From NCBI GenBank assembly GCA_963782815.1, contig CAWALG010000016.1, positions 11,372 through 75,371 of the forward strand: a stretch of 64,000 nucleotides of DNA, in the 5' to 3' direction. Within the stretch, counting starts at the first letter, position 1. Each line of letters starts with the position of its first letter. Made by a program: the position numbers and the translations under genes. Below the pieces are notes generated by a model. The model made no database searches, had not been told where the DNA came from, and saw nothing but the letters and a program-made list of their open reading frames with translations. Below are positions 1 to 11,142 of the stretch, one piece after another. Source of the stretch: an uncultured Acidobacteriota bacterium (GTDB lineage Bacteria; Acidobacteriota; Thermoanaerobaculia; UBA5066; Gp7-AA6).

Positions 1-2251
1 ACTTCTTCGAAGCTACGTCATAGACCACAGCGTCTGTGACGATGCTCGCCACCCGCATCTGCCCGATTGGACTCTCCTCGAGGGCCTTATCGAAGCTGTC
101 CTGAGTGTTACCGAACAGCTCTCTGTGAAGCGGAGGCTTGGAATTTACATAGATGTACCGTTGGGCCGCCTCGCCCAATACGGGCCGATCGAGAGGCTCG
201 TAGAGAATATCCTCGTACTGACTCTTCCCGCTTTGCTCCCGGAAATCAACCTTGCACGTGCTGAGCGCATTGCCGCCATCTCTTAGCTTGGCCTTAGCCT
301 CGATCGTTGCCTTGGCTCCCCAGGCGGTAGCCCAATAGGGAAGAAGGATTCTCGCAATGCGGGTCCCCTCATCACGTAGATCTCGGTGAACTTTGATTTC
401 GAGACTCTCAAGCCTCTCCGTTCCGAGAGACACGCACCCTCATGGACGCCAATACGGAATCTGATTGTTGGCATGCCAGGGAAAGCATCAAGATTGACCA
501 GAAGGACGGCGTGGTTTTCGACGCTCGGCCGGCCAGTGTAATGACCTGGGCGAAACTCGATATCAGCAGGCGGCAAGATCTCACGGGCTTCGGCGACCTC
601 GATCACCTCAGAGCGTTTCTGAGATGACGTCCTCTTTGGCATTTATGGCGGTGGCGGAAATGACGCCTTTTCCCCGGCGACAGGCATGAAAGAGTGACCG
701 GAATGGACTGGAACCCGAGCCCTTCCGATGCCGAACCACCTCGGTATCCGGGCTGGCCCGAACCTTGGGGTTATTCGAACTTATCTCGACAACGTTAAGA
801 TCCGGGGTGGATCGCCGCCCGTTCCGCGTAAAGTGTCACGCGGCGCTCTTCACCGGCTACGAGGCGTATCTGACGTTGAGTAAAGTAGAGATGGTCGTGT
901 CGGCTTTGTCGGTGTGACACCGGTTCCCTCATCGGTCTCATCTTTGTGGAACTTGTTCAGCTCCTGAAGGGCGTTCTTTAACATCTTGTCCAAGGTGGCC
1001 GAGCGATTTCCAGTGCCCTTGCGTTCTCGCTTCTCCTCGGAATCATAGATTGGCTTTAACGTGGCGTTCGACGAGCTTGAACAGGTAGCAGTAATTTCGT
1101 TCCGAGAGTCAAGACCGTCACGAGTCTCAGTCAGTACGGCCTCCGGATAGCGCGCTTCGAGCAGGGCCTCAAGGGGCGCCCGAATACCTGTCAGCCGGAC
1201 GATTCCATAGAGTCGGCTAAGAAGAGGGTTCTCGTCGTACTCCGGAAGAAGGGTCAAATCGAGCACAGCGTCATCGTCGTCGACGAAGAGGAGACCATTC
1301 TCGCGGCGTTCGTAATTGAACGGATCGTAGGGCATCCGACGGTCAGAGCGGGCCAGAAGAATATCGACTGGGATCTTGCCAACCCTGGGATGCTGAAATT
1401 GATCAGTGCTTCTGAGCAAGACAGTCCCGAGGTCGAAGTCATAGCTAAGCCGTTCTTCGAGCCAACCACCGGTCCGAAAACGGCGCACTAGCACACGCAT
1501 CGCAGGATCGCCGCGATCAGCCGGAGCATGTAGAAATTGGCGATGGCCGGCAGGAGATTGCTCTCCTGCAGGATTCTACGGTGCCAGGCGCGAGCAAGAA
1601 GCGTACAACGGTTCCAGAGCGGGTCAGGTCGGCCGGCAAGCCATGCCTCCGCAGAAGATCGGTGCTAACTCTCCCCAAAGTCTGCGTCTCCACGATGGAG
1701 TCGTCCTCGCCCTTCGCCTCCCCCCAATAAACGCGGCAGAGAGAGAGGACCTTGTCCTTAACGCTGTACACCTGGGCGGCAGGGTCGAGGCCATTCTCGC
1801 TGCGTTGATTTGAATGGTAAAGGAATACGTCGAGCGCTCCTCGGCCAAAAAGGCTTCTGGTGCGCTGCCCTTTCGCCTTTGCTTTTGCATACTCACCAAA
1901 GTTCCGATCGAGTTCCTCCTCGGTCATGCCTGGACCGTAGTCGATCACTTGGCAGGTGCGGCTTGGAAATAGCGACCTGTGTTGCTTGGAGTAGACCTCG
2001 ACGATGATTCGTCCCTCTCCCCGCTGGGCAAGCTTCTTCTTCAAGGACGCAGTGTCGATTCGGTCACCGGCGCTTAGCCCCAGGATCTTGTCGACCAAAC
2101 CAGCGGAGTGGGATATGCCCAACTGGTTCTTCAGGGCGCTGTCGGAGTTGGTGATCAGCTCGGTAAGCGTCTTCAGGAAACTCCCCCCAACCGCCTTGTT
2201 GGTTTGACGCCTCTTTTCACGGCCTGCCCAAGTAATGACGCGCTTAGCCAT
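1..2251 (-). CDS. Large GHKL (HSP90/MutL/MORC-like) ATPase; frameshifted in this assembly, 3' end outside window
   Basis: N-terminus has Bergerat-fold motifs TELITNSD (ExxxN), VIDYGPGM (DxGxG) and RSLFGRG. GGAGG RBS before ATG 2251. Coding continues through ORFs 850-1500 and 283-642 and a manually read open frame to position 1 (YIYVNSKPPLHRELFG). Confidence 0.8.
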
Positions 2252-2990
2252 CTTGGCCCTCCGGTCTGAATCGTGGTCCCAGCTCAAGCCCTCGGAACAG
2301 TGAGGGGAATGAGGTTTCTAGCTGCGTTAGGAGTTCTGTAATCTCTTGGTCGCCGGCCCTTCGCGCGGAATCCTTTAGATCGTTAAGACGACGGCGCTTC
2401 GCAGCGGGCGGCGTGTGATCGAAGACTTCGAGCGCGGAATAGACATGAATGATGTCGCGCTGCTCAAGCGGGGTTGTCTTCCAGCGCTCGAAGAGCCTGC
2501 TCGATCGGATTCGAGCAACCTCCGATTTGAAGTCTAAGTCCCTTGCTCGTTCGGAGCGCTTGGAGCCTGGTTGTCTTGGAGCCTCAGTCGGGCTGCCGAG
2601 AACGACGTTTCCGACCTTCGGATAGCCGATCCGACGAAGCATCTCGCTAACGAAGGCTTGACCACTTGGAGTGATCGCATACCCGCGGCGGTTACTCCCG
2701 GAGAGCCAACCCCGATATTTCGGGCCTCCCTGCAGGAGGGACCGCAAGGATCGGTTCGCGTCGGGAAACTCCGGAAAGGAATCCATAGCGAAGCGCTTGG
2801 GGAATAGGCGGTGGTTTGCTACCGCGATCGACTCGACTGTCGGTCGTAGGCCCCACTCACGGAGCCAGTGGATCGTGAACACGGTGAGAGCAGCAAGCTG
2901 TTCGTTCTGGTAACGTTCCAACGGAAAGGGCCCGACTCGCAGGAGGCCGCGCTCAGTCTTCATCGAGATCTTCCGAGTGCTTTCGGCCAT
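2244..2990 (-). CDS. 248-aa hypothetical protein, possible N-terminal winged-helix
   Basis: Intact ORF; stop overlaps the GHKL start; ATG lies 1 nt after the upstream stop. Segment HRLFPKRF...FPEFPD...GWLSG...GYAITPSG resembles a wHTH wing (inference). Confidence 0.65.
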   Translation of the reverse strand: MAESTRKISMKTERGLLRVGPFPLERYQNEQLAALTVFTIHWLREWGLRPTVESIAVANHRLFPKRFAMDSFPEFPDANRSLRSLLQGGPKYRGWLSGSNRRGYAITPSGQAFVSEMLRRIGYPKVGNVVLGSPTEAPRQPGSKRSERARDLDFKSEVARIRSSRLFERWKTTPLEQRDIIHVYSALEVFDHTPPAAKRRRLNDLKDSARRAGDQEITELLTQLETSFPSLFRGLELGPRFRPEGQDG

Positions 2991-2991
2991 C

Positions 2992-3469
2992 CTATGAACC
3001 CCTTTTCCCCCGACTTCTTCCTCTGCGTTTTGATCGCCGGTGGCGCGGAGGCACTTCTGGAACTCCCCATGCCCTCAATGCGTAGAGACCCTTGCCCACT
3101 CGGCAAACCTCGTCAGATCGAGAGAGGTACACGATCACGTTGGCGTCCGTTCCCTTCCCCGGGATTGGGATGCCCTTCTGCTCCAGAGCCAGCCGAAGAT
3201 CGGTTATGTGAAGGGGCTTGCCGCTTTCCTCAAGGACGGCAACCGCGGCCCGCCTTACGGGATGCTCTGAAGACCTGCGCTTCTTGGCGGGGACCTTGGC
3301 TCGAGGCGGTCCCTCTCGGAGGTTCCGGCGCGACGAGCGCTTCCAGCGCGTGTTTCTTCCGCATGTCTTCTGCAATCTCGGCCCGAAGGCGCGAGGCCTC
3401 AGCTTCGTTCGCCTGAATTCGGTCAGTGACCTCCTGAAGCCAGCTGCGTACGGTACGCTCGTCAATCAT
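2992..3469 (-). CDS. Coiled-coil + HARE-type winged-HTH protein with basic tail (one frameshift)
   Basis: ORF 3230-3469 gives a heptad-rich N-terminus. ORF 2992-3465 gives AAVAVLEESGKPLHITDL...FxRVGKGLYAL-like segment typical of HARE-HTH/RpoE-delta-like domains. Confidence 0.65.
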
Positions 3470-3487
3470 CCTATAACCCTAGCTACC

Positions 3488-3515
3488 ATTATACACAAGG
3501 CCAGAGAAAACTCAA
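3488..3515 (-). promoter_or_regulatory. Sigma70-like promoter for the three-gene cassette
   Basis: Minus strand TTGAGT-N16-TATAAT, 18 nt upstream of ATG 3469. Confidence 0.55.
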
Positions 3516-3599
3516 AATCAGTAGCCGAGACCCTCGATCAGTCAATCCGAGGTTGACTCGGTCTGCGCAAGCAGCGCAGGCGCGGTTGCTGTTTTCAAT

Positions 3600-5161
<1,562 letters not shown>

Positions 5162-5165
<4 letters not shown>

Positions 5166-5942
5166 ACGGAACCGGAGCCCAGGAACTCCTCCGCGAGGCG
5201 CGGGTTCCGGGAGAGCTCGTGCACGGAGCCGGACAACGTCACGCGGCCCGTTTCCAGGACGCAGGCGCGGTCGGCCAGCTTCAGGGCGTGAAGGACGTTC
5301 TGCTCGACGAGCAGGATCGTGACGCCCTCTTCCCGGATCCGTCTCAAGGCGTCGAAGACCTCGCGCACGAGCAGCGGGGCGAGGCCCAGGGTGGGCTCGT
5401 CCAGGAGGAGGAGGCGGGGGCGCGCCATCAGCCCCCGGCCGATCGCGCACATCTGCTGCTCTCCTCCCGAGAGCGTCCCGGCCTTCTGCGCCGATCGTTT
5501 CTCGAGCTGCGGGAACATCGCGAAGACCCGCTCCAGGGTCCGCGGCCCTCTCTCTTCGCGCGGAGCGGGAATACGCCCCCATCTCGAGGTTCTCGCGCAC
5601 CGTCATGCCCGGCCAGAGCTGGCGCGACTCCGGGATCAGGACGAGGCCGCGCGCCACGAGCTCGTACGGCGGCAGACCGCCGACGTCCCGGCCCTCGAAG
5701 AGGATCCGGCCCCGGCGAGGCGCGAGCAGGCCGCAGAGACTCTTCAGGATCGTCGTCTTGCCGGCGCCGTTGGCGCCGATCAGCGTGACGACCTCCTATT
5801 CCGCGACTTCGAAGGACACGTCCCAGACGGCCTGGACGTCGCCGTAGAAGACGTCGATGTTCTGAACCGAGAGGATTTGTGAATTGTGATTTGTGATTTG
5901 TGATTGACCGGAGCCCGGAGAACTGTTGTCTGCCCTAATCAC
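5162..5942 (-). CDS. livF: LIV-family ABC ATPase (LivF-like); frameshift plus one in-frame TAG
   Basis: LIGANGAGKTT, TLSGGEQQM, LLLLDEP, LLVEQN. GTG start lies inside a heptamer array. Confidence 0.8.
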
Positions 5943-5966
5943 AAATCACCAATCACCAATCACAAA
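5875..5966. repeat. Inverted pair of heptamer arrays (TGTGATT)n / (AATCACM)n
   Basis: ttgtgaattgtgatttgtgatttgtgattg ... aatcacaaatcaccaatcaccaatcacaaatt. Confidence 0.85.
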
Positions 5967-6707
5967 TTGCTTTCGACGGGTTCCGTGCCCAGATACGCCG
6001 AGACCACCTCCGGGTCCCGGATGACTTCCGAGGGCGTTCCCTCCGCGATCTTCTGTCCGAAGTTCAGGACCAGGATCCGGTCGGAGACGCCGACGACGGC
6101 GTGGACGTGGTGCTCGATCATCAGGACGGTCACGCCCGAGTCGCGGATGGAGCGGATGAGCTTCATCGCGTCCTGGATCTCCGAGGGGTTCAGGCCTCCC
6201 ATGACCTCGTCGAGGCAGAGGACCTCCGGCTCGGTCGCGAGAGCGCGCGCGATCTCCAGGCGCTTCAGCTCCCCGATCGTGAGCGTCCCGGCGAGGGCGC
6301 CGGACTTTCGGGCGAGGCCCGTCTTCTCGAGGATCTCCCCGACGCGCTGTCCGGCGTCTTCCTTGCGGCGGCGGCCCGACGCCGAAGTGGGCGCCGACCG
6401 AGACGTTCTCCTCGACGGTCATGTCCCGGAACGGTCTCACGATCTGGTGCGTCCGGACGAGACCCCGCGCCACGACGGCGTGATTGGGGAGGCGGTCGAT
6501 CCGGTCGCCGCGGAAGCGGACGGTCCCGGAGGTCGGGACCGCGGCGCCGACCAGGCACGAGAAGAGCGTCGTCTTGCCCGCTCCGTTGGGGCCGATGACG
6601 CCGAAGATCTCGCCCCGGGCCACGTCGAAGTCCACGCCCGCGAGGGCGAGGAGCCCCTCGTAGCGCTTCATCAAGCCGCGGACCGAGAGGATCGCTTCAG
6701 CCGGCAT
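5960..6707 (-). CDS. livG: LIV-family ABC ATPase (LivG-like), frameshifted
   Basis: GVIGPNGAGKTT, DEVMGGLN, MIEHH, DPEVVSAYLG. Confidence 0.85.
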
Positions 6708-9855: not shown

Positions 9856-9935
9856 GGCTTTCCCTCCTCCAAAAGCGGCGTCTCCCGCGACGCCACGACA
9901 GGAACGCGATGAATCACTGATGGAACCCAAGGATA

Positions 9936-11142
9936 TTACGGAGTCGGCGCGCACAGGAACCCGTCGGCGAGGAGGCCGACGGCGAGCGCGGTGACACAAC
10001 TGCCGGCGACACCCGGCCAGCCCCAGGCCTGCCAGGCGTAGCCGGGAAGAAACGAACCGACGCTCGCGCCGACGTAATAGAACGTCACGTAGAGGGCGCC
10101 GGCCGCTCCCTTGGCGCCGGCGGCATTGGCGTTGACGAACGCCGGCGCCGTGGACTGCACCGCGAACATCCCGACGCAGAGGACCACGAGCGAGACGACG
10201 ATGGCCGGCAAGGAGTGCACCAGAGTGCCCAGGATGCCCGCCGCGGCGATCGTGAGCCCCACCGCCATGACGGCGCGCCGCCCCACGCGGCCGGAGATCT
10301 TTCCGGAGACGAGCGAAGTGAAGACGCCCGCGATGTAGACCAGGTACACGGAGGAGACGAGCGCCGTGGACAAACGAAACGGCGGCGCCGTCAGGTAATA
10401 CGGCAGATACGTGAAGACGCCGATGAAGGCGAAGAAGACTCCCCCGCCGATCACGAAGGCTCCGATCAGGCGGCGGTTGCGGAAGTGGACGAACATGCCG
10501 CGGTAGGCGCTGCCGAGCCGGATCCCGGCCGCTCCCTGCCCCGCGGGGAGCCCGCGCGCGATCGCCGCCGCGCCGACGAGGGTCACGAACCCGAAGAAGA
10601 GGAAGGGCGCGCGCCAGTTGGTCCCCGCCGCGATGAGACCCGACAGGACCCTGCCGGTCAGGCCTCCCGCCACCGAGGCCGCGATCCAGCCGCCGACCTT
10701 CGGGCCCAGGTCCGCCTCGCTGTAGTAATCGCCGATGTAGGCGACCGCGACCGCGGTGACTCCCGGCATGAGAAACCCCTGCAGGGCGCGGAAGACGAGC
10801 AGCATGTGGAAGGAAGAGGCGAGCGCGCAAAGGGCCGTCGGAATCGCGAGCAGGAAGCAGCTCGTGACCATGACGGGCTTTCGTCCGACCGCGTCGGAGA
10901 GCGAGCCGTAGGCGCTCGAGACGACGGCAATCATCAGGACGACGACCGAGATCGTGAGCCCCGCGGTGGCGGGAGCGACGTGGTACTCCTTCGAGAGGAG
11001 CGGCAGGATCGGCTGAGTGATGTAGAGATCCGCGTAAACCGCCACGGTCGCGAAATTCAGCGCCGTGACCGTCGCGACGGCTGCTCTGCCCCTCTCCCGG
11101 CGGGAGAGGGACGGGGTGAGGGGGCCTCTTGCCTTCCCTCAT
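9936..11142 (-). CDS. MFS transporter (YnfM-like); start uncertain
   Basis: ADLYITQPILP, GSLSDAVGRK, LYVTFYYVGASVG; about 12 TM helices. Confidence 0.82.

Follow-up and report, generated by a model that had tools for sequence, protein, structure and literature searches.

GHKL ATPases of the MORC and paraMORC type were linked to restriction-modification (R-M) operons in 2008 (Iyer, Abhiman & Aravind 2008, PMC2292703), in an analysis that predicted MORC-type enzymes for bacterial R-M systems and proposed them as the source of the eukaryotic MORC silencers. As given in that analysis, about 70% of the published prokaryotic MORC neighbourhoods contain a superfamily II helicase (PMC2292703). A second domain, the prokaryotic HARE helix-turn-helix (HARE-HTH), was tied to N6-adenine R-M systems by comparative work (PMC4738411), and it is presented as probably reading modified DNA in such systems (PMC4738411, PMC10853773). 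Here, we describe a cassette of four genes in which a GHKL ATPase and a HARE-HTH protein are joined by a winged-helix protein and a DNA methyltransferase. It lies at the left end of a 64,000-nt stretch of DNA from an uncultured Acidobacteriota bacterium (the window; contig CAWALG010000016.1, in our dataset G000:C16:11372-75371) and extends into the adjoining 11 kb to the left (L002; window position = L002 position - 11371). The cassette fits a methylation-marked, R-M-like self/non-self system of the MORC/paraMORC kind, an assignment of function that we regard as evenly balanced between right and wrong.

All genes of the cassette lie on the minus strand, co-oriented and translationally coupled, in the order HARE-HTH protein, winged-helix protein (which we call U248), GHKL ATPase, and methyltransferase. 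The first gene (2992..3469; ~160 amino acids (aa)) starts with an ATG at 3469, and its stop codon TAG (2994-2992) is separated by a single G (2991) from the ATG (2990-2988) of the intact U248 gene (2244..2990; 248 aa). The U248 stop codon TAA (2246-2244) falls in an 8-nt overlap (2244-2251) with the gene for the GHKL (MutL/MORC-like) ATPase (1..2251; about 795-797 aa), which starts at ATG 2251-2249, leaves the window at its left edge, and ends at L002 11238, 133 nt further on. There, the GHKL stop and the start of the methyltransferase gene (L002 10361-11241, outside the window) overlap in an ATGA. Upstream of the first gene is a promoter-like site (3488..3515, minus strand), with TTGAGT at 3515-3510, a 16-nt spacer, and TATAAT at 3493-3488. 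The TAG-G-ATG junction, the 8-nt overlap and the two hexamers had been noted in an earlier reading of the sequence alone (the sequence-only reading), and we found each of them in place. The same reading had placed a possible effector left of the window; the leftward extension revealed the methyltransferase instead, and no nuclease is recognisable in this copy.

The arrangement recurs in other genomes. We found a U248 match in 37 loci, comprising the window's own, two from species genomes, and 34 from metagenomes, with two near-duplicate pairs among them (L004/L030 and L008/L010). A GHKL open reading frame (ORF) lies directly downstream of U248 in 28 of the 37, five loci end in or just past U248, and four hold truncated U248 remnants without GHKL (L018, L029, L034, and L035; L034 by its likeness to L035). 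Wherever the sequence reaches at least 300 nt past the GHKL stop, the next gene is a PF01555 methyltransferase (13 of 13 loci, or 11 of 11 when the near-duplicates are merged). The gene upstream of U248 varies: it encodes a HARE protein in 13 loci and an unrelated protein of 75-84 aa in nine, a toxin-antitoxin-like pair adjoins U248 in five, and the remaining loci have other genes or no sequence there. Because of this variation, the conserved core of the cassette is U248, the GHKL ATPase, and the methyltransferase, and HARE-HTH is an exchangeable first gene. The sequence-only reading had proposed a unit of HARE-HTH, U248, and GHKL; the U248-GHKL order stands, HARE-HTH is a member in a minority of loci, and the methyltransferase has to be added to the core.

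In the five loci with an adjoining pair, the two genes directly upstream of U248 (L007 1314-1945, L009 1-653, L011 7191-7830, L034 939-1570, and L035 3182-3813) look by eye like an AbrB/SpoVT-type antitoxin and a PIN-type toxin. A second pair, YefM/YoeB-like in appearance, follows the truncated U248 of L035.

The ATP-binding residues of the GHKL protein are conserved. Among 30 diverse homologs, with identities down to 22%, N35, D104, R132, F135, G138, and G214 are invariant, and E31, G108, G136, and T215 are conserved in at least 90%. The window's family carries, intact, all of what we take to be the GHKL motifs, namely I (ExxxN), II (DxGxG), III (a G-rich loop), and IV (GT). Close homologs share 78% mean column identity, and at E <= 1e-3 the family widens to 403 representatives, 98 of them at E <= 1e-30. 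Against the Pfam profiles HATPase_c and HATPase_c_3, the window's GHKL fragment scored 21.2 bits versus a cut-off of 25, the full protein of L004 had no match, and most of 32 diverse relatives fell below the cut-off, those above it being P0057 (27.5 bits) and P0184 (26.0 bits). A search of PDB sequences with the GHKL profile gave a chance-level match only (E 0.21). The structural model, built from a shallow alignment of 11 close sequences, has a mean predicted local distance difference test (pLDDT) of 56.9. In this model, residues 73-273 match the SMCHD1 ATPase (Z 10.2) and the Hsp90 ATPase domain; residues 77-413 match MORC2 (Z 8.8, 259 residues, root-mean-square deviation 7.6), MORC3 (Z 8.6), and Topo VI-B (Z 8.8), middling Z values to be read with the pLDDT of the model; and residues 455-560 are predicted as an immunoglobulin (Ig)-like sandwich. 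Going by the pattern of secondary structure, there may be a second sandwich, and the C-terminus may be helical. Among distant relatives (P0085, P0107, P0110, and P0084), some are ~940 aa long and end in Sigma70_r4 and DnaA_C HTH domains, and one other distant relative ends in a DSP-type phosphatase domain. Since these relatives end in differing domains, the family swaps its C-terminal modules.

The U248 family is tight and comprises 54 clusters (57-96% identity, 189-275 aa; 235-248 aa in the cassette), all of them unnamed, and the relatives that could be named are from Acidobacteriota and Nitrospirota metagenome-assembled genomes. U248 matches no Pfam family, and ESM Atlas returned unnamed "hypothetical protein" clusters only, for U248 and the GHKL protein alike. 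The U248 model (mean pLDDT 77.9) predicts a winged helix at residues ~23-141, in the N-terminal half, with Z values of 6-7.6 to many winged-helix proteins and a Foldseek E of ~0.05 to DtxR; Foldseek against PDB returned nothing at E <= 0.001. The C-terminal half is modelled as all-helical and is without a match. A predicted complex of GHKL residues 30-798 and U248 residues 8-232 obtained a score of 0.00, which is evidence neither way. No longer or fused forms of U248 were found, in a search that is itself weak evidence.

Judging by the alignment, the HARE protein consists of an N-terminal coiled-coil helix, a low-complexity linker, the HARE-HTH domain, and a basic tail. PF05066 matches 10 of 10 family members at E <= 0.1, and best in L005, the window's closest relative (E 3.1e-6; 27.9 bits, the cut-off being 25.9; profile positions 3-71 of 71), and for the ORF in the window the score is 21.4 bits. 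A relative's protein maps to the window's gene in two frames, with one frameshift in the linker splitting the gene into ORFs 3230-3469 and 2992-3465. Searching PDB sequences with the HARE profile returned coiled coils only. The gene identities given by the sequence-only reading (HARE-HTH, winged-helix-like, and GHKL) are in agreement with these motif, profile, and fold matches. That reading could match the cassette to no named defence system, and our scan of PADLOC-DB 2.0 (Mza, Hma, MADS, Tiamat, BREX, and others; E <= 0.01-0.1), in which we used the window's fragments and the intact homologs from L003 and L004, points the same way: no PADLOC model matched the U248, GHKL, or HARE proteins, and neither did any NCBIfam or PHROGs model.

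In a consensus scan, TTGAGT-N16-TATAAT was the sole sigma-70-like site in L002 9700-15300 (5.6 kb); shuffled sequences are expected to hold 1.5 +/- 1.2 such sites, which places the hexamers alone within chance. The promoter is supported instead by position, because 11 aligned HARE-type loci keep a TTGAC-like box and a TAnAAT box in the same place ahead of the HARE gene. A further box of ~10 nt, TAnRATG(C/G)TA, occurs in up to three copies around the promoter of HARE-type loci, the last copy overlapping the start codon (for example, L004 9449-9508, L023 346-406, and L024 588-647); the window has a single exact copy, at the -10 (3484-3493). Twelve of 13 HARE loci have a match to this box in the ~100 nt that precede the HARE start; the remaining sequence of the 37 mapped loci has just two matches, which are in the duplicate pair L008/L010. 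By our own arithmetic, chance would give one per ~33 kb, but the count is partly circular because the pattern was derived from the same sequences. The repeated boxes suggest an operator for autoregulation, perhaps by the HARE protein.

The methyltransferase is a PF01555 enzyme of the beta class (N4/N6), with E 2.1e-39 for the intact relative in L004 and similar values for others. In the window's genome it is read in three frames, and its fragments place DPPF (motif IV) before FAGAG (motif I, FxGxG), an order with which the alignment agrees. Two METHYLTRANSFERASE subtypes were distinguished among the methyltransferases. Type A (L007, L009, L011, L012, L013, L033, and L037) has a mutual identity of 67-84%, and type B (L003, L004, L008, and L020) is 37-40% identical to type A. 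The window's enzyme is closest to type A (41-48% identity by tblastn, versus 29% to type B). The ATGA overlap with the GHKL gene is also present in L007, L009, L011, L012, L013, and L033. In the type B locus L003 (genome G402; L044-L046), the GHKL gene lies in pieces on three contig ends, and the methyltransferase, fused to an HTH_3 domain, lies divergently upstream and adjoins an IS200-type transposase gene.

When the first gene (HARE or the 75-84-aa protein) is set against the methyltransferase subtype, all four combinations occur. The GHKL proteins of L008 and L013, which share the first gene and differ in methyltransferase type, are 77% identical, whereas those of L008 and L020, with different first genes and the same methyltransferase type, are 70% identical; for L004 and L020, the value is 77%. 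In these three pairwise comparisons GHKL tracks the first gene rather than the methyltransferase type, which is limited evidence that cassettes may exchange modules.

The window's cassette resides on an island. GC content is 0.55-0.60 in window positions 1-3500 and 0.66-0.73 to their right, and the low-GC stretch runs for ~5 kb, from L002 ~10000 (window about -1370) to ~14950, with 0.64-0.74 on either side; the abrupt shift to AT-rich DNA that the sequence-only reading had described was thus recovered in the composition scan. A second genome of the same genus, G808 (97% complete), has an empty site in which the two flanking genes are ~60 bp apart; the corresponding points in the window's genome, G000, are ~5.1 kb apart. 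On one flank, the acyl-CoA synthetase gene is 87% identical in DNA to G808 up to G808:C1:235358, and on the other, the end of a uracil-DNA-glycosylase-like gene matches G808 235418-235639. The right-hand junction falls in 3516..3599 (no strand), with the promoter on one side and the acyl-CoA synthetase stop codon (3600-3602) on the other, and the left-hand junction, placed by GC content and the G808 comparison, lies at L002 ~9960-10000, beyond the window. With its single operon, the low-GC stretch is an island of ~5 kb that was acquired horizontally. Horizontal acquisition had been proposed in the sequence-only reading, and it is supported by the empty site in G808 and by a search of 400 further genomes of the phylum that returned no member of the GHKL family.

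Across loci, the cassette is rare and its surroundings differ. The GHKL profile detected only G000 in 401 genomes of its phylum (370 of high quality) and, similarly, only G401 in 401 genomes of that genome's phylum. A scan of genome contigs with a single protein instead of the profile returned nothing. The GHKL protein had no tblastn match in plasmids and phages, and no relative was found on viral contigs. An integrase and an IS200-type transposase are found among the flanking genes, as are toxin-antitoxin pairs and housekeeping genes; contexts are varied, and the homologs do not sit in one conserved housekeeping setting of the kind that would have told against the sequence-only reading.

At the ends of the island, we found no convincing terminal repeats, no integrase or transposase match among its ORFs, and no tRNA in L002. 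A short GC-rich repeat of the GTCATCCTGAG...GAAGGATCT type occurs twice in the empty site of G808 (L053, G808:C1:234800-236300), and a degenerate copy is kept in G000 at the left junction (L002 ~9915-9960); insertion of the island may have taken place within or next to a repeat of this type. After the methyltransferase gene, at the left end of the island, lies a 75-aa ORF (L002 9999-10226, minus strand; ~1.15-1.4 kb beyond the window's left edge). Searches against Pfam, PADLOC, and PHROGs returned nothing for it, and it does not resemble the 75-84-aa protein encoded by the first gene of other cassettes.

A methylation-based self/non-self system fits the pairing of ATPase, winged-helix protein, and methyltransferase, together with horizontal movement, module shuffling, and the occasional presence of a cognate endonuclease. 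In such a system, the methyltransferase would mark the host's own DNA at its target sites, and U248, plus HARE-HTH where present, would bind DNA and read whether these sites are marked. The GHKL ATPase would dimerise on ATP binding, as do MutL and MORC, clamp or loop unmarked DNA, and then either block it or pass it to a nuclease. This nuclease may be a BamHI-type enzyme where one is present and elsewhere, including the window's copy, a nuclease yet to be named, one of the host, or none. The gene content, its conserved order and coupling, the intact ATPase motifs, the insertion, and the rarity are observations; methylation as a self mark, its reading by the HTH proteins, clamping, and any anti-phage effect are inferences. 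A variant in which no nuclease takes part would make the cassette an immune or silencing system, one that would parallel MORC silencing in eukaryotes: the methyltransferase would write the self mark, the winged-helix and HARE-HTH proteins would read its absence, and the GHKL protein would clamp and compact unmarked incoming DNA, blocking its replication or transcription without cutting. We consider this variant rather unlikely.

Several findings weigh against a self/non-self system of this kind. Solved relatives of the methyltransferase mix N4-cytosine and N6-adenine enzymes, and since both kinds occur, the modified base may be N6-methyladenine (m6A) or N4-methylcytosine (m4C). No recognised endonuclease was seen in 9 of the 12 distinct methyltransferase-bearing loci, and the BamHI-type protein of L004 had no tblastn match in 16 kb of L002. 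No helicase was recognised adjoining the cassette in the 37 mapped loci, and many flanks are ordinary metabolic genes. Beyond residue 440, the alignment of the 30 diverse GHKL homologs has no invariant histidine or acidic position; a catalytic C-terminal domain is therefore not seen, which argues against one of the paraMORC3 or paraMORC5 kind. Domain calls beyond the ATPase are tentative because the GHKL model is poor, and the frameshifts may reflect true decay of the window's copy.

The main rival holds that U248, GHKL, and the variable first gene are an accessory module of a BamHI-type Type II R-M system, one that might control or enhance it, for instance by timing methylation against cleavage after transfer or by looping DNA for the endonuclease; the window's copy would then be a derivative that lost its endonuclease and kept an orphan methyltransferase. 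In PADLOC, the methyltransferase matches MTase_II and, more weakly, mad2; both subtypes best match the Type II model PDLC03238 (E 2.5e-64 to 6.3e-131) and share the motifs DPPF and CRHC...DYGG. A BamHI-type endonuclease (PF02923, E 9.4e-44) is convergent to the methyltransferase in L004/L030, L008/L010, and L020, and L008 has an HTH_3 controller-like gene in addition. These loci are, however, only 3 of the 12 distinct ones. The gene after the type A methyltransferase, where it could be named, is a metabolic gene of the housekeeping type, as in L013, L033, and L037, and the identity within type A together with its ATGA coupling to GHKL suggests a maintained unit rather than decay. As usually described, Type II R-M systems need no GHKL ATPase or winged-helix partner. 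We hold the accessory role to be improbable, if still the strongest of the competing accounts. Less probable again is a non-immune epigenetic or selfish module, in which the orphan methyltransferase, a chromatin-like GHKL clamp, and the HTH proteins would regulate host genes or stabilise the island in an addiction-like manner. The want of a recognised nuclease or helicase would suit such a module, as would an island that stands alone between metabolic genes rather than in a defence island, and the repeated promoter boxes suggest tight autoregulation; a patchy and rare distribution, module shuffling, and the company of R-M and toxin-antitoxin genes are more typical of conflict systems.

A different objection concerns the window's copy itself, which would be a dead pseudogene cassette if its frameshifts were real. 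Compared with its closest relative (L038), the GHKL gene has 11 small indel events in 2.39 kb, which split it into five or more ORFs; the HARE gene has one frame change, the three frames of the methyltransferase gene imply at least two, and truncated U248 remnants exist in other loci (L018, L029, L034, and L035). Yet the acyl-CoA synthetase gene, which G808 spans with one open frame, has the same density (compared with G808, 6 insertions of one base each in ~1.55 kb), and the LivF-like and LivG-like ABC ATPase genes (within window 3600-6707) are, by eye, also split between frames. The GHKL indels sum to zero and keep the full length of the gene, and a completeness of 56.7% at 4.06 Mb fits an error-rich assembly, as the whole of G000 seems to be. 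Because indel density is equal in housekeeping and island genes, the frameshifts are most likely assembly errors, and we give a dead cassette only a slim chance. Far more remote is a methyl-directed DNA repair-like module, in which a MutL-like ATPase would tell strands apart by their methyl mark. The ATPase motifs resemble MutL in our reading, and repair was raised as a possibility for a minority of paraMORCs (Iyer et al. 2008, PMC2292703); against this stand the rare, mobile distribution and the finding of no MutS-, MutH-, or UvrD-like partner in any of the loci.

Apart from the cassette, the window has a ~95-nt stretch with a GC dip at ~5874-5967, between the LivF-like and LivG-like genes. 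It matches dozens of sites in G808, G357, and G806 and looks like a palindromic repeat of this bacterial family, similar to repetitive extragenic palindromes or miniature inverted-repeat transposable elements (REP/MITE-like), since its matches often hit both strands at one place.

With its three or four genes, the cassette offers a compact test case: its ATPase motifs are intact, it has a dedicated methyltransferase and two proteins that may read DNA modification, and no nuclease is visible. If protective, it would reveal the coupling between a MutL/MORC-like clamp and a methyl mark, and whether restriction works without cleavage; if not, it would be an example of an orphan methyltransferase that travels with a chromatin-like ATPase.

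Set beside known systems, the cassette resembles several and coincides with none of those compared. It shares with BamHI-type Type II R-M systems the best PADLOC match of both its methyltransferase subtypes and, in three distinct loci, the endonuclease, which was not found in the window's copy and most others. With BREX it has in common a methyltransferase, an ATPase, and DNA-binding proteins without an obvious nuclease, an analogy of logic only, by which restriction without cleavage would be conceivable; the methyltransferase class differs, and no BREX model in PADLOC matched the cassette proteins. Like Mza, in which MzaA is MutL-like, it combines a GHKL ATPase with other genes in a candidate defence operon, and the C-terminal HTH of the distant GHKL relative P0085 matches MzaA 595-656 (E 1.8e-9). 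The window-type GHKL protein, however, matches no Mza model, and no other Mza component matched the cassette proteins. Our literature search returned no experimental study of such a methylase-linked GHKL cassette, the closest being a preprint on Tiamat, a different GHL clade, for which the text describes GHL ATPases that sometimes stand beside DNA methyltransferases and proposes a methylation-based self/non-self logic (bioRxiv 10.64898/2026.09.30.754977). Tiamat is described there with a C-terminal PD-(D/E)xK nuclease, whereas none is recognisable in the window's GHKL protein, which matched no PADLOC model, that of Tiamat included.

The closest likeness is to the MORC/paraMORC systems, from which the cassette differs in its lack of a superfamily II helicase, the lack of a recognisable nuclease in the window's copy and most others, its methyltransferase, and its partners. 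The methylase here is of the beta class (N4/N6), while those published with MORC are, as described, mostly C5-cytosine enzymes (PMC2292703). The GHKL protein also appears to differ in having Ig-like beta-sandwich domains and a helical C-terminus, as modelled, and its partners are a winged-helix and a HARE-HTH protein. Marks of single families in the MORC/paraMORC classification are, for example, ExxxH in paraMORC2 or a RecB-like, TIR, or HxH domain at the C-terminus, and the ATPase module is described there as a GHKL domain with an S5-fold domain behind it. In common with the MORC/paraMORC systems, the cassette has an N-terminal GHKL domain with intact ATP motifs, to which a region that may resemble the MORC2/3 module, going by the low-confidence model, is joined; it also has a DNA methylase in the same operon and a patchy, mobile distribution.

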